Assembly (NCBI GenBank): GCA_964501035.1 | Contig: CAZCRK010000013.1 | Location: 1 to 34,007, forward strand | DNA length: 34,007 bases | Direction of reading: 5' to 3' | Shown: positions 1,443 to 29,465 of the stretch, piece after piece | Layout of the letters: each line of letters begins with the position of its first letter | Position numbering within the stretch: position 1 is the stretch's first letter | Program-made: the position numbers and the translations under genes | Notes under the pieces: model-generated | The model's database searches: none | What the model was told of the DNA's origin: nothing | The model's input: only the letters and a program-made list of their open reading frames with translations

Positions 1443-1472
1443 TTTTGATTAATCTCCCAAAATTGTAGGGCG

Positions 1473-1480
1473 CAAATTTA
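1473..1480 (-). promoter_or_regulatory. Putative FCB-type -7 promoter box (TAAATTTG) upstream of menG
   Basis: Exact match to the Bacteroidetes TAnnTTTG consensus about 30 nt upstream of the menG start. Confidence 0.4.
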
Positions 1481-1561
1481 CATCAATTTAACCCTTCTGA
1501 CCCTATTCGTTGTTGAAACAATCTGAAGGTTGTAAATTTCACCCCTAATTTTTCATAAATT

Positions 1562-4647: not shown

Positions 4648-4662
4648 CGTTGTTCATTTTTT

Positions 4663-5496
4663 ATGTTTATTAACGGTCCCAAAGCACATTATTTTATTGA
4701 TGAAAGTCATTTCGTACCAGATCAAACCCCTATTGTATTTCTGCACGGATTCATGGGGTCGCACGAATCGTGGAATGACATGGTTGCACACCTCAAAACA
4801 TCATCATTAACTATCGATTTACCCGGTCACGGGCAAAGTACCTTTACGGAAAAACATCCAACATATTCATGGTTGGACTGGAGCAATGATTTCAAATCTA
4901 TTTTAGATTCTTGCCATATTTCAAAGGTAAATCTATATGGGTATTCGATGGGTGGTCGTTTAGCATTAATGTTTGCAAATGCCTATCCTCATTATATTAA
5001 ATCCCTAATTTTAGAAAGTTCAACTCCTGGGATTATAGATGACAAGGAAAGAAATAATCGAAAGATACAGGATACTCAAAATGCCCAATTAATTCGAGCA
5101 AATTATTCACAGTTTTTAACTCAGTGGGAACAACATAACCTGTTTTTGCATCAGAAAATTAGAAATGAGGACGGGTGGAATAATCAGAAAGAAATACGGT
5201 GTAAACAAGACCCCTCGCAAATTGCAACATCCTTAGAAAAATTAGGCACTGGTTCCATGCCACCATTATGGGATAATCTTCCAAACTACCATTTTTCAGT
5301 TACCGTAATTACCGGGGATGATGATGCAAAATTTAGTAAAATTGGACAAAAGATGAACACCTTGCTTCCAAATTGTCATCTAAAAACCATCCCAAACTGT
5401 GGACATAATGTGCATTTGGAAAAGGGAAATTACATTAATAATTTTTTGCAGAATTTATCCCATCTTGAATCGTTGGTTGATCTGCTGGGACATTGA
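4663..5496 (+). CDS. menH: SHCHC synthase (alpha/beta hydrolase)
   Basis: FLHGF, DLPGHG, nucleophile motif GYSMGGR, GDDDAKF, GHNVH; follows menD. Confidence 0.88.
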   Translation: MFINGPKAHYFIDESHFVPDQTPIVFLHGFMGSHESWNDMVAHLKTSSLTIDLPGHGQSTFTEKHPTYSWLDWSNDFKSILDSCHISKVNLYGYSMGGRLALMFANAYPHYIKSLILESSTPGIIDDKERNNRKIQDTQNAQLIRANYSQFLTQWEQHNLFLHQKIRNEDGWNNQKEIRCKQDPSQIATSLEKLGTGSMPPLWDNLPNYHFSVTVITGDDDAKFSKIGQKMNTLLPNCHLKTIPNCGHNVHLEKGNYINNFLQNLSHLESLVDLLGH

Positions 5497-7031: not shown

Positions 7032-8075
7032 ATGTCAAAAGAAGTTCGGTTAACAAAATATAGTACAGGTGCTGGTTGAGCGTGTAAGTTGAGTCCATCG
7101 GACCTTGCTCACGTGTTGAGTAATTTACCAACTGATACATTAAATTCAAAAACTGTCGGGTTTGAAACGTCAGAAGATTGCGCTATTTTCCCACTTGATA
7201 ATGGTCAGTTATTGATTCAATCCGTTGATTTTTTCACACCCATAGTGGATGATGCCAAAACATTTGGAAAAATTGCAGCAGTTAATTCGTTGTCTGATAT
7301 TTATGCAATGGGAGGGACACCTCTGTTTGCATTAAATGTTGCTGGGTTTCCATCTGATGAATTGCCGTTGTCTGTTTTGACCAACATATTGCAAGGAGGT
7401 ATTCACATTGCACAAGATGCTGGGATTTCCATTTTAGGCGGACATACTATCAAAGATGATGTTCCAAAATATGGATTAGTGGTTACTGGCATGGTGGATT
7501 CTGACAAAATTGTTCGCAATAATTCCGCAAAACCCGGAGATATACTCGTACTAACAAAACCATTGGGATTGGGAATAATTTCTACCGCCATAAAAAATAA
7601 CAATGCAGATAAAGATTTAGAAAATACTGCCATAGAAACGATGCTTGAGTTAAATAAATCAGCATCAGAAATAATGGTTCAGTTTGATGCACATGCCTGC
7701 ACGGACATTACTGGGTACGGCTTGTTGGGCCATCTAATGGAAATGTGTGAAGGTAGCCACGTTTCTGCGCAGCTAAAGTTTAGTTCTATTCCATTTATTG
7801 ATGGAGTTGAAAATCTCGCTGAAGAAGGTGTAATTCCAGGAGGTACCAAGAAAAATTTAGCTTTTGTTAAAGACAGAATAGATTTTGCATCGCATATTCA
7901 ACCCCACCAACAATTAATGCTTGCAGATGCACAGACGTCGGGTGGTCTGCTTATTTCAATTGATCCATCAAAGGTGAATGATTTGGTTTCAAAACTAAAT
8001 GAAAAAAATGTAATGTGTGCGGAAATTATCGGCAATGTCCAAGAATATAATTCCAAAAGTATTAAGGTCGATTAA
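7032..8075 (+). CDS. selD: Selenide, water dikinase (selenophosphate synthetase), selenocysteine-containing (U16)
   Basis: ATG 7032 behind GAGGGA is in frame with the ORF-track fragment and reads MSKEVRLTKYSTGAG-U-ACKLSP, with in-frame TGA 7077-7079 at the catalytic C/U-x-x-K motif. Further motifs: QSVDFFTP, NSLSDIYAMGG, GGHT, TDITGYGLLGH, DAQTSGGLL. Confidence 0.95.
7080..7114 (+). promoter_or_regulatory. Putative bacterial SECIS element of selD
   Basis: Directly 3' of the UGA: GCGTG(7080-84)/CACGT(7110-14), TAAG/CTTG and apical GTCC-atc-GGAC (7093-7103) can pair. Confidence 0.6.
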
Positions 8076-9226
8076 TGAGCCGTGTTTATTTGGATAATCA
8101 AGCAACTACGCAAATAGACCCCGAAGTTTTGAAAGAAATGATGCCATATTTGACTGATAAATATGGGAATGCTTCGAGTCGAAATCATCCGCAAGGTTGG
8201 GAAGCAGATGAAGCAGTTCATATTGCGAGAGAACGTGTTGCTGAAAGTATTTGTGCAAATCCAAAAGAGATAATTTTTACTAGCGGAGCGACCGAAGCCA
8301 TCAATTTAGCTCTGAAGGGATGGTTTAAAAAAAACAAAGCAAAAAATCATCTCATAACCTTAAAAACTGAACATAAAGCTACACTAGATAATTGTTCCAT
8401 CCTTGAAAAAAAAGGAGTTAATGTTACATACCTACCAGTTCAAGAAAATGGAATAGTTGATTTAAAGGTTTTAGAGAATTCAATTACACCAGATACTGCG
8501 TTAATTTCAATCCTGCATGCAAACAATGAAATTGGGGTTATCCAACCCATTGAAGCAATTGGTAAACTATGCAAAAAAAATAATATTATATTTCATGTTG
8601 ATGGGGCGCAATCTTTGGGAAAATTACCCATAGATGTACTTAAAATGGGAATTGATTTATTATCCATATCTGCCCACAAATTATATGGACCCAAAGGAAT
8701 CGGTGCTTTGTTTGTACGTAGGCGTAATCCTCGAGTTGATTTACATGCTATAATAGATGGTGGCGGACATGAAAATGGGTTGCGATCTGGCACATTACCC
8801 GTTCATCAAATAGTTGGTTTTGGAAAAGCATGTGTTCTTGCAATAACAAACATGGTACCTGAACAAGCTAGAATTGGAGAGTTACGAAAACAACTGGCAA
8901 GTGCAATCCAAAGCGGGTTACCAAACACCATCATAAATGGAGATTTAGATAATCGCCTTGCAGGAAATTTAAATATGTCATTTACAAACATAAATAGCGA
9001 AGCACTCATTATGGCCATGCCAGAAATTTCGGTTTCTACGGGGTCCGCGTGTACATCTTCAACAATGGATCCATCTCATGTATTATTAGCATTGGGGCGT
9101 TCAAAAGAGCTTGCTTACGGATCAATTCGAATTGGGATTGGACGTTTTACGTCACAAGATGATATTGAAATCGCCTCAAGGTCTATTGTAAATGGTGTAA
9201 AAAAACTTCAATCTATTCGATTGTAA
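8075..9226 (+). CDS. iscS: IscS-type (group I) cysteine desulfurase / possible selenocysteine lyase
   Basis: YLDNQAT, GNASS, FTSGATE, HVDGAQ, SAHK (PLP Lys), RSGT, GSACTS; the start overlaps the selD stop (TAATG). Confidence 0.88.
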   Translation: MSRVYLDNQATTQIDPEVLKEMMPYLTDKYGNASSRNHPQGWEADEAVHIARERVAESICANPKEIIFTSGATEAINLALKGWFKKNKAKNHLITLKTEHKATLDNCSILEKKGVNVTYLPVQENGIVDLKVLENSITPDTALISILHANNEIGVIQPIEAIGKLCKKNNIIFHVDGAQSLGKLPIDVLKMGIDLLSISAHKLYGPKGIGALFVRRRNPRVDLHAIIDGGGHENGLRSGTLPVHQIVGFGKACVLAITNMVPEQARIGELRKQLASAIQSGLPNTIINGDLDNRLAGNLNMSFTNINSEALIMAMPEISVSTGSACTSSTMDPSHVLLALGRSKELAYGSIRIGIGRFTSQDDIEIASRSIVNGVKKLQSIRL

Positions 9227-9228
9227 GT

Positions 9229-11832
9229 TTAGATATCAAACCAATAATCAAATTTAACAAATAGTGACTCAATATCGTATCGTTCAACTCCAATTTCATT
9301 TGATTTGAAATCTATAAACTCATTAAATGAAGTAAATCGTTTTCCGTTGATAAACTTTGATTTTGAGTACACAACATACATACTAGAACCTCGAGAAAAC
9401 TCCCACCTTAACACAAAATTAGAAATAAATGATGCGTATTTTGTGTAAAAAAATGGGTCATTTTGAGGATGAATATAATCAAATTCATCATCACAAGCAT
9501 CTTCATTGGACTCATCATAATCTCCAAAACAAGATATGGGATATTGATAATTATTTTCTTCATCAATAAACGTAAATTGAGTGGAATCTTGTTCGAGATT
9601 ATTAAAGTTTGTATAAAATTCTGAGTACATACTCAAGCTTAACTGTTTATTGAAACTTTTCTCAATTCTAAAATCAAAAATATCAATAAAATTATGAGAT
9701 TCAGAGAAGAGCGAGATGGGAGCATCAGAATTTGGAACAATGCGTGTTGGTATATTTCCATTGTTAATCTTGGGTTTAACTCCGTTATTTAGAAATCTGA
9801 ATTTCTCAAATGCTCTAATTTGAGATGCACCAACTTCTAACTGGAAAGATTCTGTTGGATTATAGTTAAACACGAGTGCATGTTCGCGCCCCCAATCGTT
9901 TATTTCACTTTGAACATAACTAACAGAATATTCTGCGTAGAGTGGTTTCCGAATATCGGTTGACAAAACTGTAGAAACACCCCTTGTTTCGGGTACTTTT
10001 AACACGAAACCAAGAGAGTCAATACCAAAATTATAGATTCCATTATGATTGTTATCTTCCCAAGTCATTAAATCATCAAAGTGAGATTTTGTGTTTACTA
10101 GGACAATTCTAGTAGCCCAATAGTTTTGGAATTCAATTGAAGTATGAAAAGAAACAGAATGGTCTAACACATCTTTCTGCAAATTTTCAGCATATTTAAA
10201 TTGGATATCAGCAGAAGCATTTTTAATAAAATCAATGGGGTAATCTGTTCTGTATTTTATCCCTGATTGTAATTTTTCAATATTGTTTCGTTCCATAAAA
10301 CCAGAATAATCAAAATTCAAACTATCGGATAATTTCTCATATTCAATCCATAGAGTAAAATGCTCAGGTGTTTTATAGCTAATTTCTGTGGAAATACCGT
10401 ACCCCGAATAGTCGATATTTCTCTTAATACTTGAAGAAACAAATTGGAAATCAAATGCAAACTTATTTTCAAATAAATTTATCATACCATCTAACGATTG
10501 TACGTTTGAAATTATCGAATTTTTAGTATTATTGAGTGTGTCTTCACCAGAATAATGTGTTGCAAATATTCCAATATTAGAATTGCCATCTAAAATATCA
10601 TATTGAATCCGACCATTATAGAATTCATCTCTATTTCCATGGGCTAACTGCTCTTGAATTGATGTTGTGCTATCGGAAGTTAAAGCACCTAAAATATTAT
10701 AAGACAGACCATATTGTGTTTTACCTGTTAATTTTCCCGCACCTAAAATAGATGTACCATAATCTCCAATCCGTCTCGAATAAAAGATTTCAAGTGGGGT
10801 GTAAAACTGAGATGCATTTTCCATGAAAAATGGTCTATTTTCATCAAGGTATGTCTCATATGCAGTTAGATTTATATCATTAGGGTCGGCTTCAATTTGT
10901 CCAAAATCTGGATTTAAAGTAAGATCAATGACAGCACTTTGTGTTACATAGTACTTTAAATCCAAACCTGTATTATCCATAAATCGATTTTGCTTTTTAT
11001 GAAACATGTTGTCTGCAGTTATCTCATTACCTGAATAATCACTTTTAAGTGTATAATAATCTAAACTACTCATTCCTTCTAAAATATAGGGTTTAAATTC
11101 AAAATTCTTTTGAGGGGTAACGTTTTTAATTCCGGTTAAATGACCATATTGTGATACGATTCCCTTAGTTCCTCTAGGAAAAGTAACCCACGTATCCGTT
11201 TCATTTTTTCGTTGAATATATCGAATAAAGTTGATTCCCCATTGCATGTTTTCTATTTCAATAAATCGTAAAACTGAAAATGGAATCCTATATTCAATTG
11301 ACCATCCAAGCTCATCTACATTCACATGTGAGCTCCATACAGAATCCCAAAAATCATCAATTGATTCATCATCATATACCATGTAATCAGCTTGTACTCC
11401 AGATGCATTTACTACAAATGCAAAAGCAGATTGGTGATCATGATGGCTATCAATTTCAATTGCAAACCAATCAGACTTTCCTTCAAAACCTTCAAACCAG
11501 TCATCATAATCTGATAATTGTTTTTTTATACCTGTTGGATTTGAATCGAATAGTCTAACTCCAAAATAAATAGCATCATTATCATATCCAATTTTCACTT
11601 CGGTTCTTTCAGAGGGTTGCTTCATGTTATGGGGTTCTTCTTGCAAAAAATCAGTGATGGGTGTAATCTCTTTCCAACATGCTTCTTGCAATATTCCATC
11701 AATTTTAACTGAAGATTGCAATTTCTCAATATGAATAAACTTGGAAGATTTATATTGCTCAAATGGTTCTGATCCGTCTCTGGAAAACAGCATAACCAAC
11801 AATAAAATATGTATTATAACTAGTTTATAAAT
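9229..11832 (-). CDS. Exported CBM9-like / DUF5916-type outer-membrane protein
   Basis: IDGILQEACW, WSIEYRIPFSVLRF, WGINFIRYIQR, DLTLNPDFGQIEAD, ENRPFFMEN, FYSRRIG; C-terminal FVKFDYWF strand. Start extended to ATT 11832 (see findings); ORF track start is 11802. Confidence 0.75.
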   Translation of the reverse strand: MYKLVIIHILLLVMLFSRDGSEPFEQYKSSKFIHIEKLQSSVKIDGILQEACWKEITPITDFLQEEPHNMKQPSERTEVKIGYDNDAIYFGVRLFDSNPTGIKKQLSDYDDWFEGFEGKSDWFAIEIDSHHDHQSAFAFVVNASGVQADYMVYDDESIDDFWDSVWSSHVNVDELGWSIEYRIPFSVLRFIEIENMQWGINFIRYIQRKNETDTWVTFPRGTKGIVSQYGHLTGIKNVTPQKNFEFKPYILEGMSSLDYYTLKSDYSGNEITADNMFHKKQNRFMDNTGLDLKYYVTQSAVIDLTLNPDFGQIEADPNDINLTAYETYLDENRPFFMENASQFYTPLEIFYSRRIGDYGTSILGAGKLTGKTQYGLSYNILGALTSDSTTSIQEQLAHGNRDEFYNGRIQYDILDGNSNIGIFATHYSGEDTLNNTKNSIISNVQSLDGMINLFENKFAFDFQFVSSSIKRNIDYSGYGISTEISYKTPEHFTLWIEYEKLSDSLNFDYSGFMERNNIEKLQSGIKYRTDYPIDFIKNASADIQFKYAENLQKDVLDHSVSFHTSIEFQNYWATRIVLVNTKSHFDDLMTWEDNNHNGIYNFGIDSLGFVLKVPETRGVSTVLSTDIRKPLYAEYSVSYVQSEINDWGREHALVFNYNPTESFQLEVGASQIRAFEKFRFLNNGVKPKINNGNIPTRIVPNSDAPISLFSESHNFIDIFDFRIEKSFNKQLSLSMYSEFYTNFNNLEQDSTQFTFIDEENNYQYPISCFGDYDESNEDACDDEFDYIHPQNDPFFYTKYASFISNFVLRWEFSRGSSMYVVYSKSKFINGKRFTSFNEFIDFKSNEIGVERYDIESLFVKFDYWFDI

Positions 11833-15937: not shown

Positions 15938-18079
15938 ATGAAACGTATATTAATGATGGTTGTCGCAGTTTCAACGCTTATGGTGGCGCAAGATGCTGCA
16001 GGTAACTATAAACTGTCTGGTCTTAATGTAACGTACTATGATGTAGCTCGTTATACTACACCTATCGTTGTTGACGATATTTATGGTGCTGGTGTATCAT
16101 TAGCAATAAGTGCTATTGAACAGGGTGAAATATTTTATGCTACATTTAATGGTCCACACAGTGAAGCATATTTAACATATGCTGGTGTAAACTTAAATGT
16201 AAACTTGTATCCAGATGGTACTGGCCACATTGCTGAAGGTAGTTTCTACCCTGATGTAAATCAAGTTGACTGTATTTCTGGTGTACAAGTATTACCAATT
16301 ACAGATAATTTAATTTATACTTCTGATCTAAACGCTGGGTTGTCATGGCCATCCACAAATATTGCTGGTTTACCATCACATAACCCATATGCTTATGATC
16401 CAAGTACTGCTGGAACAGTAGGTTCATTCTCACTTAGTCAATCAGTTATTTTTGACTTTTTCCCAGCAACACCAACTCAAACATCTATTCCATTCCCAAT
16501 TCATTTTGGTGATTTTGATGGTAGTGGGTCAATTGATTATGAACTTGGCGAAGGCATACCTCCAGGTTATACACTTCCTGGTGTAGCTGGTGGACTTATC
16601 CAAATTGGTGAAAATAACCCAAGTATAATGTTGGAAGATTTAGACGGTGACGGAGTTCCAGAACCAAATGCTGATTGGGATTTAACATTAGAATGGCATG
16701 CTATCGATGGTGCTTTAGCTGAAAGTGGACTTGGAGATATCATTGGTGAAGATGAAGATGGTGACGGAACTGATTTCGATCGTATTTTCGGTCTTCCATA
16801 TATCACTGCTGCATACTTAAATCCAGATCCATCATGTGGTGGATTTAACTATCCAATCTTTGGTGGTCAAGCTGTAGTTGATGTTATGGTTGCTTCTGTT
16901 TATGCTGGTTATTTTGATGCGTGTTCAGGTGCTGGTGGAGTATGGGAAATGATTTATGGTGGTTGTTTGCTTGAAGGTGGTGATGAAGCTACTTGTGCAG
17001 CAGTTGCAAATGCTTCTACTGAAATACCTGCTGGATCCGGTACAGACTACTGTGATCCGTTTGCTTCCAGTATGGCTTCAGGTTGGGAACTAACATGTGT
17101 GGATGAAGCAGATGGTTTAGCGAATGATGCATACGTTATGGATCCTTCTTTAGAACCATGGGGTAATTTCCTAACATTAAATGCTGCTATGTTCCAAGGT
17201 TGCTTGGCACAAACTGGTGGTGACCCTACACCTTGTTTAGATTACATGGTTGATGATAGTGACCATGACTTTAATGGTGTTGATGGTAAACTTGTTATGC
17301 GTTTCTCACCAACTTGTATTCCTGAAGTTGAAATTCGTCAGGTTACTACAGAATTCTATAGTGTAGATGACGTATGTGGACACTCTGGTGATGCAACTGG
17401 TGACGGTGTTGTAAACGTACAAGATATCGTACGAACTATTGATCATATCTTAGGTGGTACACCTTTAGGTGGCGCTGCAATTTGCGAAGCTGACTTAAAT
17501 GATGATGGTATCATTAATGTTATCGATATCGTTGGTATGGTAAATGTTATCCTTGGTGATGGTCGTTCAGTTGATGCAGACGCATCTTACTCAATAAACG
17601 GTACTACTATGGTTGCTGAAAATGTAGCAGGTATCCAAGTAGAAGGCAATTTACTTTCTGCTGTAAATGGTAATGATATAGTTGTAAGCGGTAACGGAAC
17701 TACAGTTATTTATAACCTTAATGGTAAATTAGATACACAATCTTTCACATTTGATAATGTATCTGATGCTGTTGTTGTAGATCAAAATGCTGCTGTTGTT
17801 ACTATGTCTGTTGTTGAAGGTTTTGAGCTAAGTGCTGCTTATCCAAATCCATTCAATCCAACAACAAGCTTTGACCTAACTATTGATAATGCTGCTGATG
17901 TATCTGTAAAAGTATATAATGCAGTGGGTCAATTAGTAAGCGTTATTGCAGAAGGCAATATGAATGCAGATACATATAACTTTACTTGGGATGCTGGCAA
18001 TGTGTCTAGTGGTGTTTACTTCATCACTACTCAAGTTGGTTCAGACTTGAACACTCAAAAAGTTATGTTGATGAAATAA
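15938..18079 (+). CDS. Secreted Cys/Gly/Asp-rich surface protein with dockerin and T9SS type-A C-terminal sorting domain
   Basis: Signal peptide MKRILMMVVAVSTLMVA; duplicated dockerin motif (GDATGDGVVNVQDIV...ADLNDDGIINVIDIV); C-terminal domain YPNPFNP...VYNAVGQLV...SGVYF...KVMLMK; strong AGGAGG RBS. Confidence 0.85.
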   Translation: MKRILMMVVAVSTLMVAQDAAGNYKLSGLNVTYYDVARYTTPIVVDDIYGAGVSLAISAIEQGEIFYATFNGPHSEAYLTYAGVNLNVNLYPDGTGHIAEGSFYPDVNQVDCISGVQVLPITDNLIYTSDLNAGLSWPSTNIAGLPSHNPYAYDPSTAGTVGSFSLSQSVIFDFFPATPTQTSIPFPIHFGDFDGSGSIDYELGEGIPPGYTLPGVAGGLIQIGENNPSIMLEDLDGDGVPEPNADWDLTLEWHAIDGALAESGLGDIIGEDEDGDGTDFDRIFGLPYITAAYLNPDPSCGGFNYPIFGGQAVVDVMVASVYAGYFDACSGAGGVWEMIYGGCLLEGGDEATCAAVANASTEIPAGSGTDYCDPFASSMASGWELTCVDEADGLANDAYVMDPSLEPWGNFLTLNAAMFQGCLAQTGGDPTPCLDYMVDDSDHDFNGVDGKLVMRFSPTCIPEVEIRQVTTEFYSVDDVCGHSGDATGDGVVNVQDIVRTIDHILGGTPLGGAAICEADLNDDGIINVIDIVGMVNVILGDGRSVDADASYSINGTTMVAENVAGIQVEGNLLSAVNGNDIVVSGNGTTVIYNLNGKLDTQSFTFDNVSDAVVVDQNAAVVTMSVVEGFELSAAYPNPFNPTTSFDLTIDNAADVSVKVYNAVGQLVSVIAEGNMNADTYNFTWDAGNVSSGVYFITTQVGSDLNTQKVMLMK

Positions 18080-18522: not shown

Positions 18523-21500
18523 ATCAAACGTATAATATTTTTATTTATCATAAGTACCACATTTGTTTTTTCAGCAAAGTATGCAACTATTCATGGTGTG
18601 TTATTAGACTCCAAAAATAATGAACCATTAATTGGTGCAAATGTTATTTTAGAAGGAACAGGTTTAGGTGGTGCAACCGATATAGATGGTTCATATACTA
18701 TTAATTATGCACCATCTGGTACATTTAACCTAATTGCAATGTATATTGGGTATGAAAATTACACTCAAGAAATAACTATTAAGCGTGGAGATTATTTAAC
18801 CATTGACATTCCAATGGTAGCATCTGCAATCCAATTAAAAGAAACACGAGTAACTGCAAAAAAACGACAAGATAAAGTTACGGAAGCACCTGCATCTGTA
18901 GAAATTATTTCTGAACGAGATATCAAACGAGAAACTACTACTAACCTAGGTTCTTTTTTAAAAGGGCTCAAAGGTGTTGACTTTACCTCAAGTGGAATCA
19001 ATAATTATAGTATTTCTGTGCGCGGATTTAACAGTAGCTTTTCAACTCGTTTGTTAACTCTAACCGATGGACGTGTAGCAAATATTCCTGCCTTGCGTGT
19101 TATCAACTATAGTACAATTCCACAATCAACTGATGATATTGAAAATATAGAGGTTGTTCTTGGACCTGCAACTGCTTTGTATGGAGCAAATGCACATAGT
19201 GGTGTAGTTAATATTACATCCAAATCCCCTGCATATTCAGAAGGATTTTCCTTAAGTGTTTCCGGTAGTAATGATGACCGGCAATTGCAAAAATATAATG
19301 CTCGATTAGCTAAAAAATTAACCAATACGCTTAGCATGAAACTGTCTGGTATGTATTTGCATGCATACGAATGGCCATTTATATCTGAAGAAGAATATAA
19401 ACGACATAAATACCCTTGGGTTGGCACACCTGGTAGAGCAAAAGATGGTTTTGATAATAANNNNNNNNNNNNNNNNNNNNNNNNNNNNNNNNNNNNNNNN
19501 NNNNNNNNNNNNNNNNNNNNNNNNNNNNNNNNNNNNNNNNNNNNNNNNNNNNNNNNNNNNATTGATAATGATGGTGATGGTCTGATTGATGAAAATATAG
19601 ATCATGCGACTGATCAATGGTACGATGGCTTAGATAATGACGGTGATGGCAATATTGATGACTCTCAAGAAAGAGAAACCGGAAATGGTACTGGACTACC
19701 CCAATGGCAATATAATATGGAAGATAGAAATATTATCATTGAAGGCGGACGAATTTACCAATCTATAAATGGAGAAAATAACCAATGGTATAGTGAATCA
19801 AATTTTCTAAACGAACCCTTTACAGACTCAAATGGTGATGGTGTTTGGAATCCTGAAGATTCTTTTATTGATGAAACATGTCTATGGTGTCAAATTGACG
19901 TATGGGATGCTGACGCTTGTTATAATGGTAATGTTTTAGTAGATTTAAATGGGGATGGTATTTGCAATGGTGAATCTTTGATAGATGATTGGAATAGTAA
20001 TGGTATATGGGATGATTCAGAACCTTTTGAAGATTTAAATGAAAATGGTGTGTATAACTCCTTTGAAGAATATGTTGATTTAAATGAAAATAGTGAATGG
20101 GATGAAAATGAACCATTTGTAGATAATAATGGTAATGAAACATATGATTTCCCTGTAATAATTGATAAACATGTACGCGGTGATTTTCACTATAACGAGA
20201 ATGAACAAACATTAGAATTTGATTTATATATCTATGATACAGATGGTGATGGGGTGTATGATACTGGGGATGGGTGTTTTGGTTGCCCTGCAGATGAGTA
20301 TGAAGATTTAAATAATAATGGAATTTTTGACGAGAATGATATTCTCACCGTTGACCATAATAATGATGGGGAGTTTACACCTAAAGATTACCAAGATAAT
20401 TTTCAATTAGTAACTGATAATAATGGTGATGGATTAGATGAATATCCAGACTTTGAAGTCGAAAACAAAAAAGTAGAGTTTCGTTTGGATTATGATCCAA
20501 ATGTTGATTTTAACATGTCATATCAAACTGGATTCTCATGGACTAAAACTCAGCAAGTTACAGGAACTGGACGATACTTAGCAGATGGGTTTGAATATCG
20601 GTTTCATCAATTACGAAGTCGATATAAAAATTGGTTTGCTCAATTGTATACAAATAGGAGTGAATCCGGTGATACACGCAGTTATTTATTAGGAAACGTA
20701 ATACGAGATCAATCCGTTAACTATGCTGCACAGTTACAAAACAATTTTAAAATACCAAATTTAAGTACTATGGTTGTTTGGGGGATTGACTATTTTAGAA
20801 CGGAACCCATAACCAATGGATCTATACTCAATGATGGACCGAATGGATACGATAATGATGGGGATTTTAATTTCTTATCAACCAATGGAATTGATGATGA
20901 CGGGGATAGTGATGATTATTTGGATGAAAATGGAAACGGTAAACCTGATATTGGTGAACCTGGTGTAAATGATCAAGGTTTTGTGTACGAAAACAGTATT
21001 GATGATGATAATGATGGTGAAACCGATGAAAATATTGATGAAATTTACTGTGATGACGGTTTCCAAGGTGGTATGAAAGATGGTAAGTTTTGGAAATGCG
21101 GCGAAGGTATTGATGAAGCAGATGAATTTGATTATGTGGTTTCAAATGAACTAGGATTTTATTTCCAAACTAAAACCAATTTGTACAACTCACAAAAATG
21201 GGAGTTAATTACAGCTGCCCGGTTTGACAATCATGACCTTTTAGATGAAGGTATTCAATTTTCACCTAAAATGGGTTTGATTTATAAACCCAATGATATG
21301 TCTTCTTGGAGATTTACCTATGGAAAAGCATTTAATACTCCAAGTGCAATAACGCTTCATACAGATTTATTTGTTGCACGAGATGGTATTTTGGAAATTT
21401 ATTTACGTGGTAATGCGGATGGTACACCTTATCCACGTACGGACGAAAACTACCAAGTATCTGCTCCAGGTTATTTTGAAGATGGTGAGTTTATTCATAT

Positions 21501-22782
21501 TGGTTCAGACGTAATTGACGATGGATATGCTGACCGAGTAACTGGGGCACCATTTTTCTTTAATTTACAAGATGGATCCGTACCCACAGATATGATTCCA
21601 ATTGATACCGCACGATATTTAATTTTTGTTCCGGAGTTAAATGATGATGGTGTGCTTTATACTCCAGAACAGACTCTTAATATTCCAGATGTTGACCCTA
21701 TTGGAACAGAAAAAATTCAAACTGTAGAATTGGGTTATAAGGGATTTTTGGGTGAACGAACACACTTTTCTCTTGATTATTATGTGAGTTATTATGAAGA
21801 TTTTTTCAGCCCCCCAACAGTCATAACACCCCTCGTTGTTAAACGAATATTTGATGAAGATGGAAATGATATTACTACAGTAGATAATGCAGAAGTAATG
21901 GGATTAATGCCGGTTAATGATTTTGGAACAAATCCCCCATACGGTACGGCGTGGAATGGAATTGATGATGATGGCGATTGGGCAGAATATGCTCCTTACT
22001 TTGGTTGGGATTTAGATGATGATGATGGCGACGGGAACTATGCTGACCCATATGAATGGGGATATGTAGATCCATACAATCCAAGTGATAATGATGGTGA
22101 TGGTATCGAAGAAGGTTTTACGATATATGAACCATGGGAAATTATGGAGGATTCTGATGGTCAGTTTTCCTTTTTTACTGTTGAAGATACCGTTATTCAA
22201 AGATTTTTATCTGTTGGAGTTGATGAATACTCTTCAGCAACGGGTCTCAGTGAAGCAGAAATGATTGAAACTGCAATTATTGGTGATGATGGTGAACCTT
22301 TGTTAGGACCTGGTCGTGCATATGCACCACCCCATATGGTACTTAGTCCAATGAATTATGGTAATGTGTGGATGCAGGGTTTAGATTTGGGTATCACCCA
22401 GTTTTTACCAGAATATAATTTGGTTATGGATGCAAACTTTTCTTGGTATGGCACTACCGAATACTATAATGAACTTACCAAGAAAAATGACCCCATAAAT
22501 GCCCCCAAGTTTAAAATGAATGCAAGCATTAAGTGGGATGCTCCAATTGGAGCCTTTGCACTTAATTACCGACATGTTGATAAGTTTGAGTGGAAAGATG
22601 GAATTTGGGCTGGATTTATTGGGCCATATGATTTGTTTGACTTGCACTATAATTATAAGTTAAATGAATATGTTGAGTTGAGCTTATCTGCATCTAATAT
22701 TTTTAATGATGTACATAAAGAAATGGTGGGTGGCGCTGAAATGGGTCGTCAACTTATAATGCGAATGACCTCCTCGTTTTAA
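18523..22782 (+). CDS. TonB-dependent receptor with N-terminal carboxypeptidase-regulatory-like domain and large acidic DxDxDG-rich insertions
   Basis: EPLIGANV...GATDIDGSY N-domain; plug motifs (SVRGFNS, LTLTDGR, IEVVLGPATALYGANAHSGVVNITSK); barrel strands (ARFD, FSPKMGLIY, YGKAFNTP, ELGYK, NIFN); C-terminal Phe. Spans the N gap; start extended to ATC 18523 (see findings). Confidence 0.88.
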   Translation: MKRIIFLFIISTTFVFSAKYATIHGVLLDSKNNEPLIGANVILEGTGLGGATDIDGSYTINYAPSGTFNLIAMYIGYENYTQEITIKRGDYLTIDIPMVASAIQLKETRVTAKKRQDKVTEAPASVEIISERDIKRETTTNLGSFLKGLKGVDFTSSGINNYSISVRGFNSSFSTRLLTLTDGRVANIPALRVINYSTIPQSTDDIENIEVVLGPATALYGANAHSGVVNITSKSPAYSEGFSLSVSGSNDDRQLQKYNARLAKKLTNTLSMKLSGMYLHAYEWPFISEEEYKRHKYPWVGTPGRAKDGFDNXXXXXXXXXXXXXXXXXXXXXXXXXXXXXXXXXXIDNDGDGLIDENIDHATDQWYDGLDNDGDGNIDDSQERETGNGTGLPQWQYNMEDRNIIIEGGRIYQSINGENNQWYSESNFLNEPFTDSNGDGVWNPEDSFIDETCLWCQIDVWDADACYNGNVLVDLNGDGICNGESLIDDWNSNGIWDDSEPFEDLNENGVYNSFEEYVDLNENSEWDENEPFVDNNGNETYDFPVIIDKHVRGDFHYNENEQTLEFDLYIYDTDGDGVYDTGDGCFGCPADEYEDLNNNGIFDENDILTVDHNNDGEFTPKDYQDNFQLVTDNNGDGLDEYPDFEVENKKVEFRLDYDPNVDFNMSYQTGFSWTKTQQVTGTGRYLADGFEYRFHQLRSRYKNWFAQLYTNRSESGDTRSYLLGNVIRDQSVNYAAQLQNNFKIPNLSTMVVWGIDYFRTEPITNGSILNDGPNGYDNDGDFNFLSTNGIDDDGDSDDYLDENGNGKPDIGEPGVNDQGFVYENSIDDDNDGETDENIDEIYCDDGFQGGMKDGKFWKCGEGIDEADEFDYVVSNELGFYFQTKTNLYNSQKWELITAARFDNHDLLDEGIQFSPKMGLIYKPNDMSSWRFTYGKAFNTPSAITLHTDLFVARDGILEIYLRGNADGTPYPRTDENYQVSAPGYFEDGEFIHIGSDVIDDGYADRVTGAPFFFNLQDGSVPTDMIPIDTARYLIFVPELNDDGVLYTPEQTLNIPDVDPIGTEKIQTVELGYKGFLGERTHFSLDYYVSYYEDFFSPPTVITPLVVKRIFDEDGNDITTVDNAEVMGLMPVNDFGTNPPYGTAWNGIDDDGDWAEYAPYFGWDLDDDDGDGNYADPYEWGYVDPYNPSDNDGDGIEEGFTIYEPWEIMEDSDGQFSFFTVEDTVIQRFLSVGVDEYSSATGLSEAEMIETAIIGDDGEPLLGPGRAYAPPHMVLSPMNYGNVWMQGLDLGITQFLPEYNLVMDANFSWYGTTEYYNELTKKNDPINAPKFKMNASIKWDAPIGAFALNYRHVDKFEWKDGIWAGFIGPYDLFDLHYNYKLNEYVELSLSASNIFNDVHKEMVGGAEMGRQLIMRMTSSF
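19461..19560. other. Assembly gap (100 N)
   Basis: Run of n inside the repetitive insert of the receptor; true length unknown. Confidence 0.99.
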
Positions 22783-24965: not shown

Positions 24966-25078
24966 AGTTATCTCCTTTTATTTAGATAGGTTTCGGGTAG
25001 AGAATTTACATCCAAAATAATATGCAAGATTATTCATATTTATTGCGTAACACAAATGAGAACAAAAAAGGAGAACTC

Positions 25079-25747
25079 ATGAAAACTGAAATAAATAAAA
25101 TAGTAAAAACAACAACTGGAGTAATTTTCATTTCCATATTTGTAGTCGGGATTTTTGGACTATCAATCATGGATCCAAAACCAGAACCTATTGTTGATGT
25201 TGTACCTAATCAATCACAAGTAGAGGTAAAAGAGACTTCAGATTATAATATGCCAGATCACTTTAATGAACTTGATGCTGAAACTGTTACCGACACAAAT
25301 ATAGCAGAAACAGAAGCAAAAGTGGAAACAATATCTACTGAACCCAATATTGTCTCACTCACTATTTGTTCAGATGTAGTGGATAGAAATCCTGTAGATA
25401 CTCTAACAGAAGTAGATATGGGTCTAGGTAAAATTTTTACTCATACCACTGTAAGTAGTGAATCTGAAAACACTATCCATCACGTGTATAAATTTGGTGA
25501 TGAAACAATTGCAAAGGTTACATTGGCTGTTGGAAATTCACCATCATGGAGAACATGGAGCTCAAAGTATATTGACCCTATTTGGGAAGGACAATGGACT
25601 GTAGAGGTTCAATCGGATAATGGTAATGTGTTAGCAAGTCAATCATTTTCAGTTGTGCAAACAATTGAAGAAACACCTGCTGATGAGGAAAAACCAGAAG
25701 AATTAGATGAGCCAGAATCGTTTGAAGGAATAAGCTCAACCAATTAA
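25079..25747 (+). CDS. Membrane-anchored DUF2914-like protein
   Basis: AGGAG RBS before ATG 25079; N-terminal TM helix, acidic linker, C-terminal VVDRNP...WRTWSSK...GQWTVEV domain. Confidence 0.7.
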   Translation: MKTEINKIVKTTTGVIFISIFVVGIFGLSIMDPKPEPIVDVVPNQSQVEVKETSDYNMPDHFNELDAETVTDTNIAETEAKVETISTEPNIVSLTICSDVVDRNPVDTLTEVDMGLGKIFTHTTVSSESENTIHHVYKFGDETIAKVTLAVGNSPSWRTWSSKYIDPIWEGQWTVEVQSDNGNVLASQSFSVVQTIEETPADEEKPEELDEPESFEGISSTN

Positions 25748-25768
25748 ACTTCTATCTATTCCCTTCGT

Positions 25769-25796
25769 AAAAAATGCCTCTTTTGAGGCATTTTTT
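25769..25796. terminator. Bidirectional terminator between convergent genes
   Basis: AAAAAATGCCTC-tttt-GAGGCATTTTTT. Confidence 0.85.
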
Positions 25797-27459
25797 ATTT
25801 AAACTTTTCCCAGTTTGAAATATCGACTATCGTATCCTTATCGCATGAAAAATATTTCTCGGATCCACTAAACTTTTCATCCAAAACAAATGCATGAATA
25901 AAATAATTATTTTCATCTATAAAAATGGTATTGGTGTCGATATACTCTGTTTCAAATTTTTGTCCTTGAAAATGTATTTTTGTTGGAATTACATGAGATA
26001 AATTTTCTTTTTGAGAATCAATATTAGGATTTGTAAAATGTAATTGAAGTTTATGGAAAGATGTATCCGCTAAACGAATCAAATATGAATCACCAATATT
26101 GCTAACTGCTTGATAAAAGGTATCATTTTCAACAATACTATGAGTTTGCTCTAATTGACGAAGTACCCAAATACTATCTTCATAATTTAAACTTAGTTCT
26201 AGTGGGTGATAACCAGATTTTTTTAGTACAATATTTTGACCATTTTTAACTTGTATATGTTCCATTGGCAAAATTCCAAGTTTGTTTCCATCTTTAAACA
26301 TTTCAATATCTTGTTGATCTTTATGTACATTTATACTGACAAACTCAGTATGAAATCTATTTTGATACCATTGAGTTAACACTAAAACTAAAAACAATAA
26401 TAGTGTACCTAAAGCAACTTTAATTCCCCATTTTTTCAATCTAAACTGTGAAATCTTTTTATGTTCAAATTTTATAGGATTTATTTTACTATCACCATAT
26501 AAATTGTAAAAAATCCATGATAGGTCTGATAACCCTTTTTTCTCTATCATATGACGACGTGCTAAGAAAAATGCAACCCCACAACTACTTCCAGTTGATA
26601 AATGTTTATATAATTGGATTCCAAACTCACATGCATAATCAGATGGGATATTCCCGGATGTTGCAATGACTGTTTTTATTCCTTCATTTAGAAATGATTG
26701 CACCCATTGAATGCTTGGCTCACCACATGAATTATCAATAACCAATTGTGGTACATGGGCTAACTGGTGAATATCTGAATTTGTAAAATACTCATTATCT
26801 GCTAATCTCCAACCTTTACCCTTGTCATAATGTCCGGAATAATGAAAAACTGATGTATGGGATAATGAACGTGTGAGAGAAATTTTTCTTACTGATTTTC
26901 CCAAATAGGGACCATCTACCAAATCTTCAGGTAGTGTTTCAGATATTGAATAAATTTCATTTTGAACGGATGATTCAATATTCCTATCTTCAGACGGATC
27001 GCCGACAAAAGTAACTCTGTTATTGGTGGAACATTTTTTATTTGAATTCGGATTATCTTTGTTTAAGATAACTCGAGAAATTATAAACCCATCACTTAAA
27101 AAATGTTCTCCATCAAATAGCACTTCAAATGGGAAATATCCGCATGCTTCATCTACGAATAACTGGATTTCAATTGGATTTAATACTGATTTATACTCCA
27201 AGATTCGTGCACTATAATCTCCAAAAATGTGTTGAAATAAAACAAATCCCTCTTGTTTGAGTCTTTCTAATAGGTGGATATTTGCACCTGATCGAAGGAA
27301 AGAATTTGGAATATGAACATTCACTTCATCGATAGATTGACGAAGTTCAGAAATATTTATTGTGTTTAAATATGGTTTAGAATTGCTCTCTTCCCTATCA
27401 GTAAGAATACTGATATGGAAAAGGTCTTGAGTTGATTGAATTATTTGTACTTCTATCAC
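25795..27459 (-). CDS. Membrane-anchored CHAT-domain (caspase-like) protease with extracytoplasmic PEGA-like region
   Basis: CHAT motifs FPFEVLFDG, VFHYSGH (His), VIDNSCG (Cys), A.EF...LY..L..G, ARR, W..Y.LYGD; one TM helix (WGIKVALGTLLLFLVLVLTQWY); then a PEGA-like segment (DGNKLGILP...LKKSGYHP). Confidence 0.8.
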   Translation of the reverse strand: MIEVQIIQSTQDLFHISILTDREESNSKPYLNTINISELRQSIDEVNVHIPNSFLRSGANIHLLERLKQEGFVLFQHIFGDYSARILEYKSVLNPIEIQLFVDEACGYFPFEVLFDGEHFLSDGFIISRVILNKDNPNSNKKCSTNNRVTFVGDPSEDRNIESSVQNEIYSISETLPEDLVDGPYLGKSVRKISLTRSLSHTSVFHYSGHYDKGKGWRLADNEYFTNSDIHQLAHVPQLVIDNSCGEPSIQWVQSFLNEGIKTVIATSGNIPSDYACEFGIQLYKHLSTGSSCGVAFFLARRHMIEKKGLSDLSWIFYNLYGDSKINPIKFEHKKISQFRLKKWGIKVALGTLLLFLVLVLTQWYQNRFHTEFVSINVHKDQQDIEMFKDGNKLGILPMEHIQVKNGQNIVLKKSGYHPLELSLNYEDSIWVLRQLEQTHSIVENDTFYQAVSNIGDSYLIRLADTSFHKLQLHFTNPNIDSQKENLSHVIPTKIHFQGQKFETEYIDTNTIFIDENNYFIHAFVLDEKFSGSEKYFSCDKDTIVDISNWEKFK

Positions 27460-27486
27460 ATTTATTATCTAAAACAGACAACAAAT

Positions 27487-28107
27487 TTAAGAAATACAGA
27501 GTTGTATTGTTCCTAAGTTTTTTTGCCCTAATGAAATATCAATACTATACTTACCCATTTCAATAGCTTGATTGAATGTAGAACCAGTGCTATCTGTTAA
27601 AACTTCCATTACTTTAGTATCATCACTCCACAATTGAAATCGGCCATTTTTAACATGTTTACCATCTTCATCCTCTAGAGAGAACTGAACGGTTTGACCA
27701 TCTTTATTTTCAATCATGTGGCAGAGAATATGATAGTTATCTGCTTTAGTTTTAAAAACATGTAGATATTCAGAATCTCCACGAATTGCCATTAATGTCT
27801 TGGGTGAAGGTTGAAGCAATTCAATTCCCTTGATTACTTCAAAAACATTATTCGTTTTTTTCAATATAATTTCCATCAATGATGGTGTCGATAAGTTTAA
27901 CTTTTCTATTACAGAATCCGTCAAGTATTTTGGAGGTGATTGAGTTGGTTCATCATCAACCAATTGTTGAAGGATATTTACTCGTATTTGAAGTTCTTTA
28001 TTCAATTGTAAAAACTCTGAAAATTCTGCATTTTCTTGTTTTGACATTTTACCTTCTACATATCGCAAAATGTGATTATCTGAAATTTCTTGATTTTCTT
28101 TCTTCAT
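27487..28107 (-). CDS. Putative soluble anti-sigma factor
   Basis: Directly downstream of the ECF gene. N-terminus resembles an anti-sigma domain (ILRYVEGKMSKQE...F..FL...PPKYLTDSVI), without the HxxxCxxC ligands. No TM helix; beta-rich C-terminal domain. Confidence 0.6.
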   Translation of the reverse strand: MKKENQEISDNHILRYVEGKMSKQENAEFSEFLQLNKELQIRVNILQQLVDDEPTQSPPKYLTDSVIEKLNLSTPSLMEIILKKTNNVFEVIKGIELLQPSPKTLMAIRGDSEYLHVFKTKADNYHILCHMIENKDGQTVQFSLEDEDGKHVKNGRFQLWSDDTKVMEVLTDSTGSTFNQAIEMGKYSIDISLGQKNLGTIQLCIS

Positions 28108-28119
28108 AATCCTCTGACG

Positions 28120-28692
28120 TTAAACTGCTTCAATTTCTTGCATATATTTTCGCATTTTTTTCAATGCCCTGCTTTTTAAACTACTAATAGTATTAATTGA
28201 TTTTTCAAGTTCTTCTGCAATTTCTCTCTCATTATACCCATCATAATAATACATCTCAACGACTTCTTTTTCTGAGTCATTCAATATTTCTAACATACCC
28301 TCAACAGATAGAACATTTTCAACAGATGCATCATTAAAATGTATCATATTTTCAACATTAACCAATCCATCATGTGAATTTACATCCCCCACTCTTTTAT
28401 AATATGCAGAATTTATAAAATCTCGTGCTAAATTAGTTACTATCAAGTATAGGTAAGTGGTAAACTTAGAAGTTTGATTCCAGTTTCTAATATGTTTTTT
28501 ATCATTATTAAACAACTTAACAAAAGTCTTTTGAAAAATATCCTCTTTATCTTCTTGAGAAAGTTGATCGAATGATTGTAAAGCTCCATATACAAAAGGT
28601 TGAGATAACTGTATAAATTGTCTACTTGATTGAGGGTCGTCCTCAAGTACTTTTTGAATTAACTGTGGAGTAATAACTGCTTGATTTTTCAT
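28120..28692 (-). CDS. ECF sigma-70 factor
   Basis: Region 2 (EDIFQKTFVKLF...SKFTTYLYLIVTNLARD) and region 4 (LNDSEKEVVEMYYYDGYNEREIAEEL...TISSLKSRALKKMR); 190 aa. Confidence 0.92.
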   Translation of the reverse strand: MKNQAVITPQLIQKVLEDDPQSSRQFIQLSQPFVYGALQSFDQLSQEDKEDIFQKTFVKLFNNDKKHIRNWNQTSKFTTYLYLIVTNLARDFINSAYYKRVGDVNSHDGLVNVENMIHFNDASVENVLSVEGMLEILNDSEKEVVEMYYYDGYNEREIAEELEKSINTISSLKSRALKKMRKYMQEIEAV

Positions 28693-28771
28693 AATTAGTT
28701 TTCTTACACAAATTACTTAAACTTGTTCCTTGTTTTTTGGAAATCACATATTTAAAATGTTATTTTTAATC

Positions 28772-28939
28772 ATGGGTCAAACAATCTTATTTATTGTTTT
28801 TGTAATTTTTGCTGGTATTGGAGCAAAATTAATTTGGTATCGATCAGGTAATCATGATGTTGACTTTATCACAAAACTTATTGGATGGATTATCTTTATT
28901 CCAGCTCTTTTGGGAATTATTGACTCTTTAACTTTTTAG
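28772..28939 (+). CDS. Small two-TM membrane protein
   Basis: Two hydrophobic helices; start uncertain (28730, 28757 or 28772); its stop abuts the RBS of the selenoprotein gene. Confidence 0.55.
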   Translation: MGQTILFIVFVIFAGIGAKLIWYRSGNHDVDFITKLIGWIIFIPALLGIIDSLTF

Positions 28940-29246: not shown

Positions 29247-29465
29247 TTGTTAGTTAATTTTGATAATTTTAGAAGGTACTTTAGCCCAAATCGAAATTCG
29301 TCATGGATTCCTGTAGCTAAAGTAGGTGGTTTTTTTATTCTGCTAGGGTTGTTAATTTTAATCTTGAAAGAAGTCATAATTGCTATTTTGGCTGCATTGT
29401 CAATCGGGATTGGAATTTTTATTTTAACAGTAGCATTTAGGATATGGAGGATGTCAAATTTTTAG
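29247..29465 (+). CDS. Small membrane protein (72 aa)
   Basis: GGAGG RBS, TTG start, two hydrophobic segments. Confidence 0.65.
   Translation: MLVNFDNFRRYFSPNRNSSWIPVAKVGGFFILLGLLILILKEVIIAILAALSIGIGIFILTVAFRIWRMSNF

Follow-up and report, generated by a model that had tools for sequence, protein, structure and literature searches.

A three-gene unit of ECF sigma factor, soluble anti-sigma-like protein and membrane-spanning CHAT protease in marine Marinisomatota: a candidate protease-gated signalling system

Can a caspase-like protease anchored in the membrane govern a sigma factor by cutting a soluble inhibitor encoded beside it? This question is raised by three adjacent genes on contig CAZCRK010000013.1 of assembly GCA_964501035.1, the metagenome-assembled genome of a marine Marinisomatota (SAR406) bacterium (1.87 Mb in 167 contigs, 95.7% complete), of which a stretch of 34,007 nucleotides was analysed (hereafter, the window). 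The genes encode a sigma factor of the extracytoplasmic function (ECF) type, a protein of 206 amino acids that resembles anti-sigma factors of the soluble kind, and a protein of 554 amino acids that combines a CHAT protease domain, a transmembrane (TM) helix and an outer region. A first-pass annotation had proposed that an envelope signal activates the protease, which would then cut the anti-sigma and free the sigma. What it had observed was confirmed, and its interpretation is supported in part, as each element open to a test by sequence stood up. On balance we hold it probable, rather than assured, that the three genes constitute one signalling unit that works through cleavage of the anti-sigma by the protease, the cut, its site and its trigger being what we infer. 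We draw this reading from the strict linkage of the three genes, a conserved arginine in the middle protein, the exchange of the outer domain between two lineages and the precedent of the protease HetF.

Composition and conservation of the unit

The open reading frames (ORFs) of the three genes were found at exactly the coordinates given by the first-pass annotation. They are co-oriented and separated by gaps of 12 and 27 bp, as read from the sequence:

28120..28692, minus strand: ECF-type sigma factor of 190 residues, with sigma-2 and sigma-4 only (Pfam, TIGR02937, co-occurrence with the CHAT gene)
27487..28107, minus strand: soluble anti-sigma-like middle protein of 206 residues (no TM-like segment, complex model with the sigma, zinc-type relatives)
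25795..27459, minus strand: CHAT-TM-ectodomain protein of 554 residues (PF12770 above cut-off, fold matches)

The same arrangement recurs in related bacteria. Word-based homologue searches returned one relative each, and whole-genome and profile searches were needed to go beyond. The CHAT orthologue then emerged from 13 of 41 related genomes, among them that of the window, once per genome and across four families of the order. A sigma orthologue (E <= 1e-20) is present in one copy each in the same 13, while the other 28 have neither by these queries. In the 12 other loci the sigma (183-195 amino acids) and the middle protein (197-227 amino acids) lie ahead of CHAT and hflK follows, so that in each of the related Marinisomatota loci with flanks read (12/12) the unit occupies the same position next to hflK/hflC. 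A profile of the middle protein, run against 401 genomes of the phylum, matched strongly and over its full length in 19 (E <= 1e-44), and in every one of these (19/19) sigma, middle and CHAT genes stand on one contig in the order of the window, contiguous in 18. As the unit is conserved whole, chance is excluded as the source of the linkage.

In genome G246 (C110, ~8033-11106; L024/L052/L054), the middle and CHAT genes are set apart by an insertion of ~3 kb, which may be mobile. Within it lie an ORF of 436 amino acids on the opposite strand, for which Pfam has no family, and a second, fragmentary copy of CHAT (its first 30 residues). The profile also matched weakly in 36 more of the 401 genomes, at its N-terminal positions only. 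These matches were rejected as members of the triad and read as ordinary anti-sigmas, given their N-terminal-only coverage and the example of L033, a 160-residue ORF directly 3' of a sigma gene. Ten distant ECF loci (L042-L051) were likewise discarded, as none has a CHAT match and the sole family match, in L045, is a zinc anti-sigma of the ordinary type that bears a TM helix.

That the leading gene encodes an ECF sigma, as annotated, is borne out by Pfam (Sigma70_r2 32.5 bits, r4 47.9 and Sigma70_ECF 23.7, all above cut-off) and by TIGR02937 (79.3 bits, cut-off 42.9). No NCBIfam subfamily or equivalog cut-off that would assign it to a named ECF group was reached, the best being TIGR02985 with 65.4 versus 126.4 bits. 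The genome contains five TIGR02937 matches, one of which sits in a 325-residue frame and is probably not an ECF sigma, and a single CHAT match.

The protease can be divided as follows, pLDDT being the per-residue confidence of the structure model:

26455..27459, minus strand: cytoplasmic part, residues 1-335, with an N-terminal beta/helical module and the CHAT domain (no signal peptide seen; pLDDT ~90)
26830..26832, minus strand: codon CAT of catalytic His210, second His of HYSGH (invariant in 12/12; kept in 12/12 in the second lineage)
26725..26727, minus strand: codon TGT of catalytic Cys245, the Cys of NSCG (invariant in 12/12; kept in 12/12 in the second lineage)
26365..26430, minus strand: single TM helix, residues 344-365, with a basic N side (Kyte-Doolittle)
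25798..26364, minus strand: extracytoplasmic all-beta region, residues 366-554, first domain PEGA-like by orthology (strands only, 371-546)

The CHAT family PF12770 scores 29.5 bits over residues 98-315, above its cut-off of 24, and 31.3 bits when the whole genome is searched. Both catalytic codons, said to be intact, were verified by hand at the positions claimed, and the retention of the His and the Cys in 12/12 and 12/12 proteins of two distant lineages argues for selection on catalysis. The model (mean pLDDT 82, ~90 over residues 1-330) comprises a small beta/helical N-terminal module, a CHAT fold, a long helix at 335-369 and an all-beta region at 371-546. Foldseek aligned it with 48 chains at E <= 0.001, among them Csx29 (7zoq_A, 1.8e-10), separase (1e-9), SAVED-CHAT, gingipains and DdvA (8rw5, 1.6e-6).

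As to topology, hydropathy on the Kyte-Doolittle scale peaks at 2.17 at residue 344, with six lysines plus arginines on the N side of the helix and one on the C side. The helix reaches at least 1.6 in 11 of 12 orthologues (1.55 in the twelfth), and its N side is the richer in lysine plus arginine in 10 of those 11. By the positive-inside rule, the CHAT domain is placed inside and the ectodomain outside. This agrees with the first-pass annotation, which had described one TM helix with a basic N side (KKISQFRLKK, which is present), a cytoplasmic catalytic domain and about 190 outer amino acids, 189 residues being found after the helix. A PEGA domain, for which a search had been advised, was detected in the orthologues, where PF08308 lies at the aligned position of the ectodomain above cut-off in 3/12 and below it in 3 more, and not in the window's own copy, whose ectodomain gave no match at E <= 0.1. 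No Pfam family of tetratricopeptide repeats (TPRs) matched the protease at E <= 1.

A second lineage carries a comparable unit with another outer domain. It consists of 13 metagenome loci (GC content 0.37-0.48) that were retrieved with an alignment of three zinc-type relatives of the middle protein. Sigma (~200 amino acids), zinc-type middle protein (~235 amino acids) and CHAT genes are consecutive on one strand in 12 of the 13, and the thirteenth contig stops just past the middle gene. Together with the 19/19 Marinisomatota genomes, these 12/13 loci establish the synteny of the triad on which the annotation had staked its proposal. The complete CHAT proteins of the second lineage (n=9) measure 730-756 amino acids, the TM peak falls at residues 374-399 in all 10 that are long enough, and Pfam assigned CHAT to ~73-370 followed by TPR repeats beyond the TM helix in 4/4 proteins scanned. 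The CHAT profile of Marinisomatota matches them with E = 1e-33 to 1e-52 at profile positions ~5-370 of 550, and therefore conservation extends over the inner part and the TM helix, whereas the outer domain has been exchanged. A constant inside with a swapped outside is as expected for an outer sensor and an inner effector, and the topology of protease inside and variable domain outside is kept here too. By its sequence, the Marinisomatota unit differs from this one in an anti-sigma without zinc ligands and in the PEGA-like, beta-rich outer domain.

The neighbouring genes of the second lineage, as read from translations, are proton pyrophosphatase-like and Rrf2-like. Since neighbours differ between lineages, no common target gene is seen in cis. 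In the Atlas, the nearest clusters of one member are mostly Candidatus Omnitrophota, with few labelled members, and the lineage is probably Omnitrophota. In four of its loci (L056, L060, L062, L067), a TTGACA-17-TATAAT sequence lies 0-7 bases ahead of the sigma start codon, directly after a GC-rich hairpin, a position that suggests a leaderless or near-leaderless constitutive transcript. Such a plain promoter before the sigma would indicate constant expression, with control at the protein level.

The middle protein and its conserved arginine

The 206-residue protein was annotated as having no TM helix, in accordance with a Kyte-Doolittle maximum of 0.73 and the lack of a TM-like segment, which is absent as well from all 12 orthologues (0/12). 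An AlphaFold model built with 12 sequences (mean pLDDT 72) divides it into two domains joined by a linker:

27901..28080, minus strand: helical anti-sigma domain at the N-terminus, residues 10-69, lacking zinc ligands (helices 10-17, 23-35, 37-51 and 60-69 in the model)
27766..27900, minus strand: low-confidence linker, residues 70-114, with conserved G94 and R109 (pLDDT < 50 at 75-85 and 87-114; outside the predicted sigma interface)
27781..27783, minus strand: codon of Arg109, candidate P1 cleavage residue (conservation; HetF analogy)
27493..27765, minus strand: C-terminal beta-sandwich, residues 115-205, prealbumin / carboxypeptidase-regulatory-like (pLDDT 80-93; profile matches)

Nothing significant was found for the protein in Pfam or NCBIfam, the best family matches being weak (anti-sigmaE model NF010501, E = 0.024; SpaA prealbumin-like, E = 0.0028), and Foldseek returned generic beta-sandwiches for its model, none at E <= 0.001. 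A profile of the family gave weak matches to sequences of solved structures in the Protein Data Bank. Its N-terminal part recovered DdvA (8rlz_A, 0.0038), which is the best solved anti-sigma-domain match, RsiW (0.022), RsrA (0.08), 3hug_B (0.17), which we take to be the anti-sigma RslA and whose record says membrane protein, and ChrR (1.8). The C-terminal part recovered beta-sandwiches of NOMO2, SdrD and the Cna-B type.

The anti-sigma-like N-terminus that had been annotated is also predicted to bind the sigma. A model of the two proteins in complex scored an ipSAE of 0.79, versus 0.01 for the best of three controls. The mark used for such scores is attained by 116/157 solved complexes versus 2/215 mismatched pairs. 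Runs agreed in at least 93% of contacts, the partner has a pLDDT of at least 80, and the predicted interface sets residues 10-74 of the middle protein against residues 20-94 of the sigma (sigma-2). The model thus supports that the middle protein binds sigma-2 via its N-terminal helices.

The linker harbours the most conserved residue of the family. A profile search of 1.84 billion representatives retrieved 321 proteins at E <= 0.001 (21 at E <= 1e-30), 153 of which were analysed, and 59 of these, of no more than 300 amino acids and spanning the whole profile, make up the two-domain set. An arginine aligned with R109 is present in 58/59 two-domain members and is the most conserved column of the family, and R109 is invariant in 12/12 Marinisomatota orthologues and in 15/15 sequences. 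The residue after it is small, for example G, S, N, T or D, and its position falls within the low-confidence linker, outside the predicted sigma interface. The zinc anti-sigma motif HxxxCxxC occurs within the first 90 residues in 28/59 two-domain members and in 0/12 Marinisomatota middle proteins, and one middle protein of the second lineage scored above the zf-HC2 cut-off (23.1 vs 22.2 bits). A TM-like segment was seen in 1/59 two-domain members and in 9/19 matches restricted to the N-terminal half, these short relatives including typical TM anti-sigmas (P0047, P0051).

Proposed mechanism, known systems and rival explanations

We propose that the N-terminal helices of the soluble anti-sigma would hold the ECF sigma by its sigma-2 domain, and that a disordered linker with the nearly invariant R109 would join these helices to the beta-sandwich. 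The 554-residue protein would be a one-piece sensor-protease, with a variable outer domain, a TM helix and, on the cytoplasmic side, a CHAT domain that is active. When the outer domain is triggered, presumably by an envelope signal, CHAT would cut the linker of the anti-sigma, most likely after R109, thereby detaching the helices that bind the sigma from the beta-sandwich. General proteases would then clear away the fragment with the helices, leaving the sigma free for RNA polymerase. Degradation of the fragment after the cut is discussed for Csx30 and RseA (PMC10028731).

The first-pass annotation had compared the unit with craspase alone, and closer precedents are found in HetF-PatU3, DdvA-DdvS, CalpL-CalpT-CalpS and the gene context of ECF54. 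In HetF of Anabaena sp. PCC 7120, a CHAT domain is accompanied by a TM domain and by TPRs in the periplasm, and the CHAT domain on its own cleaves PatU3, a soluble regulatory protein, at the single site R117|S118, a cut prevented by R117A, R117D and R117H (PMC9457339). The window protease has the same order of CHAT (98-315), TM helix (344-365) and outer region (366-554), and its neighbouring soluble protein has a nearly invariant arginine followed by a small residue, as PatU3 is cut after an arginine. It differs from HetF in that its outer domain is PEGA-like and beta-rich, not TPR, and against the HetF equivalog NF045509 it scored 13.7 bits (cut-off 1200).

In type III-E craspase, Cas7-11/Csx29 (TPR-CHAT) cuts Csx30, the inhibitor of CASP-sigma (PMC10028731). 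Both systems would pair a CHAT protease with a soluble inhibitor that grips an ECF-like sigma by its N-terminal domain and is cut outside that domain, and Csx29 is the top fold match of the window protease. However, craspase is soluble, requires Cas7-11 and target RNA, and has N-terminal TPRs, whereas the window unit has a TM helix and an outer domain, no TPR, and no cas genes in the window. The cut sites of craspase follow Met or Leu, according to the DdvA paper (PMC11506125). DdvA of Myxococcus xanthus is a single chain, with its zinc anti-sigma domain inside, then a TM helix, and outside a TPR-CHAT part whose active site is incomplete, and release of DdvS is thought to require RseP (PMC11506125). 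There too an ECF sigma is under an anti-sigma domain linked to CHAT across the membrane, but here anti-sigma and protease are two genes, and CHAT would lie inside, N-terminal to the TM helix and without a signal peptide.

CalpL-CalpT-CalpS, composed of a SAVED-Lon protease, an anti-sigma and an ECF-like sigma, is likewise a three-part unit with a dedicated protease whose target is a soluble anti-sigma in complex with an ECF-like sigma, although CalpL is Lon-type, activated by cyclic oligoadenylate, soluble and CRISPR-linked. In ECF54, known from Actinobacteria only, the +1 gene encodes a protein with a carboxypeptidase-regulatory-like domain, and a subtilase and a CHAT protein, sometimes with TPRs, are also encoded (PMC7826278). 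Its authors suggest a regulatory role, and in the available sections no anti-sigma is recognised and no mechanism given (PMC7826278, PMC8999054). By described domains, the likeness is that of a +1 beta-sandwich protein with a nearby CHAT, the C-terminal domain of the 206-residue protein being of the same beta-sandwich kind. The differences are the additional subtilase and the restriction to Actinobacteria. In classical regulated intramembrane proteolysis, DegS/RseP cut RseA (cited within PMC10028731). An outside signal leading to proteolysis of the anti-sigma and release of an ECF sigma, with cytoplasmic proteases finishing the task, is common to that route and to our proposal, yet there the anti-sigma spans the membrane and two proteases act in sequence, while here the protease would span the membrane and the anti-sigma be soluble. 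A literature search, which did not extend to the later ECF groups of the PMC7826278 supplement, found no paper on a unit in which an ECF sigma is joined by a soluble anti-sigma and by a CHAT protease that spans the membrane, or on such a system in Marinimicrobia, within the sections available.

Several observations weigh against cleavage of the anti-sigma or loosen its support. The invariant arginine could have a role in structure or docking instead of cleavage. For the window's own protein, an anti-sigma domain has weak support from sequence (NF010501, 0.024; DdvA, 0.0038 with the family profile). The confident contacts of the complex model are to sigma-2 only and none to sigma-4, and, as solved sigma/anti-sigma complexes exist, the pass of that model may partly reflect likeness to them. 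No ECF-type promoter by which the sigma could drive its own unit was apparent, as no shared two-block motif was seen by eye in 19 upstream regions of Marinisomatota, nor an ECF-type motif in 13 of the second lineage, where TTGACA-17-TATAAT was seen instead. Finally, the genomes counted are kin, and their numbers show retention or loss of the entire unit without being independent trials.

The rival that deserves most attention, though we regard it as unlikely, is an ordinary switch of a sigma and a soluble anti-sigma that is freed otherwise (through ClpXP or Lon, a redox change, or a partner protein), with mere co-expression of the CHAT protein, as a target of the sigma or as a protease with other substrates such as envelope or division proteins, as for HetF. 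Soluble anti-sigmas released without a dedicated protease are known (PMC8999054), a redox-capable zinc motif is present in 28/59 family members, and the known substrate of HetF is not an anti-sigma. However, the window's own protein is without the zinc motif, the most conserved residue of the family is an arginine of the disordered linker and not a sigma-contact residue, and the three genes co-occur strictly and in fixed order in two distant lineages despite the swap of the outer domain. That same arginine, conserved and exposed, belongs to the middle protein, which makes it improbable that CHAT acts on the sigma or on its own chain with the middle protein as adaptor or inhibitor of the protease and not its substrate. 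The middle protein is, besides, predicted to sit on sigma-2 as anti-sigmas do, and has anti-sigma relatives. In the sigma nothing comparable to the arginine was seen, although no search aimed at it was made. For ECF54, with its CHAT neighbours and with no anti-sigma recognised in the sections available, direct proteolysis of the sigma has nonetheless been put forward (PMC8999054, PMC7826278), as has self-cleavage in trans for DdvA (PMC11506125).

The CHAT protein could also be a non-cutting tether in the membrane that grips the beta-sandwich of the anti-sigma and releases or captures it on a signal, a partner switch without proteolysis. Tethering would account for a soluble anti-sigma beside a membrane protein, and in DdvA the CHAT site is incomplete and its activity unproven (PMC11506125). 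The His and the Cys are, however, kept 12/12 and 12/12 across two distant lineages, and we judge the tether decidedly improbable. As to what the sigma would control, the first-pass annotation had left room for stress or defence genes. Release of a sigma gated by a protease is known in CRISPR-linked systems (PMC10028731; CalpL-CalpT-CalpS), and DdvA-DdvS governs a defence island (PMC11506125), so an anti-phage switch like craspase or CalpL, which would induce defence genes after infection, was considered. Against it, cas and defence genes are absent among the 19 other ORFs of the window, the unit is a single copy per genome in a fixed place beside hflK/hflC across four families of the order, and the protease would be membrane-anchored with an outside domain and not activated by nucleotides or RNA. 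PADLOC returned no family for either the middle protein or the protease, and only weak matches of the helix-turn-helix type for the sigma. With no PADLOC match for those two proteins and the fixed chromosomal place in 12 loci, defence gene output is unlikely, and the unit being a defence switch is in our view very improbable. Cleavage of the anti-sigma by the membrane-spanning protease is thus the reading that we retain.

Surroundings of the unit and meaning of the finding

The unit ends in a hairpin that it shares with a convergent gene:

25768..25797, no strand assigned: A- and U-armed hairpin lying where the CHAT and DUF2914 genes converge (folding energy)

The hairpin begins at the stop codon of the CHAT gene and has 13 pairs and a folding energy of -16.2 kcal/mol (z = -7.0), equalled by 0/200 shuffles. 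It was not detected in a scan for the simple terminator pattern because the A/U arms lengthen the stem. The terminator that had been annotated as closing the triad is thus confirmed by folding, and it is likely a two-way terminator between both genes. The convergent gene, at 25022-25747 on the plus strand, encodes a membrane-anchored DUF2914 protein (PF11141, 1.4e-17), and is present at the same place in loci L002-L010 and absent there in L011-L013. On the other side, two small hydrophobic ORFs at 28730-28939 and 29247-29465 (plus strand; 69 and 72 amino acids) diverge from the sigma gene. Between the 69-residue one and the start of the sigma gene ~37 bp remain, and a corresponding frame can be seen in G001.

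The remaining window is of a housekeeping kind and includes menaquinone genes, electron transfer flavoprotein (ETF) genes, transporters, TonB-type receptors, hflK/hflC and aminopeptidase C. The menaquinone cluster (732-5496) encodes a UbiE-type methyltransferase, a chorismate-binding enzyme, a thiamine pyrophosphate enzyme and an alpha/beta hydrolase. A protein of 713 amino acids (15938-18079, plus strand) bears a type IX secretion C-terminal sorting domain (Por_Secre_tail, 6.2e-9), which fits an organism of the FCB group, and a scaffold gap of 100 N (19461-19560) lies within a TonB-receptor-like ORF of 1394 amino acids (18598-22782) rich in Asp-Gly-Asp repeats. Among the 19 other ORFs of the window, Pfam (E <= 1e-5) returned housekeeping families only, with neither cas families nor TPR proteins. 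As the protease itself is without TPR at E <= 1, the description of the window as free of cas genes and TPRs holds.

ECF sigma factors are a main path from envelope signals to bacterial transcription, and the routes known for them rely on the cutting of a membrane-spanning anti-sigma by two proteases, on a partner switch or on phosphorylation. If our reading is true, the roles would be reversed with respect to the usual route, and a single protein would both sense and cut. More tentatively, and with some doubt on our part, a CHAT-TM-sensor with a soluble two-domain anti-sigma may represent a general third route of ECF activation, besides intramembrane proteolysis and partner switching, with an exchangeable ectodomain and a cut after one invariant arginine, spread over several phyla, and it may explain the CHAT and beta-sandwich neighbours of ECF54.

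Bacterial caspase-like proteases have so far been associated with gasdermin-type death, and otherwise tied to CRISPR defence and cyanobacterial development. The unit, if it acts as proposed, would connect them with ordinary signalling from the envelope in marine bacteria that are abundant and uncultured. The hypothesis lends itself to a direct test, as it involves a defined protease domain, a substrate of 206 amino acids and one candidate residue, R109. In addition, the swap of the outer domain between lineages on a constant inner part would provide a natural series of sensor variants, and suggests that such proteases could be re-aimed as switches from signal to transcription.

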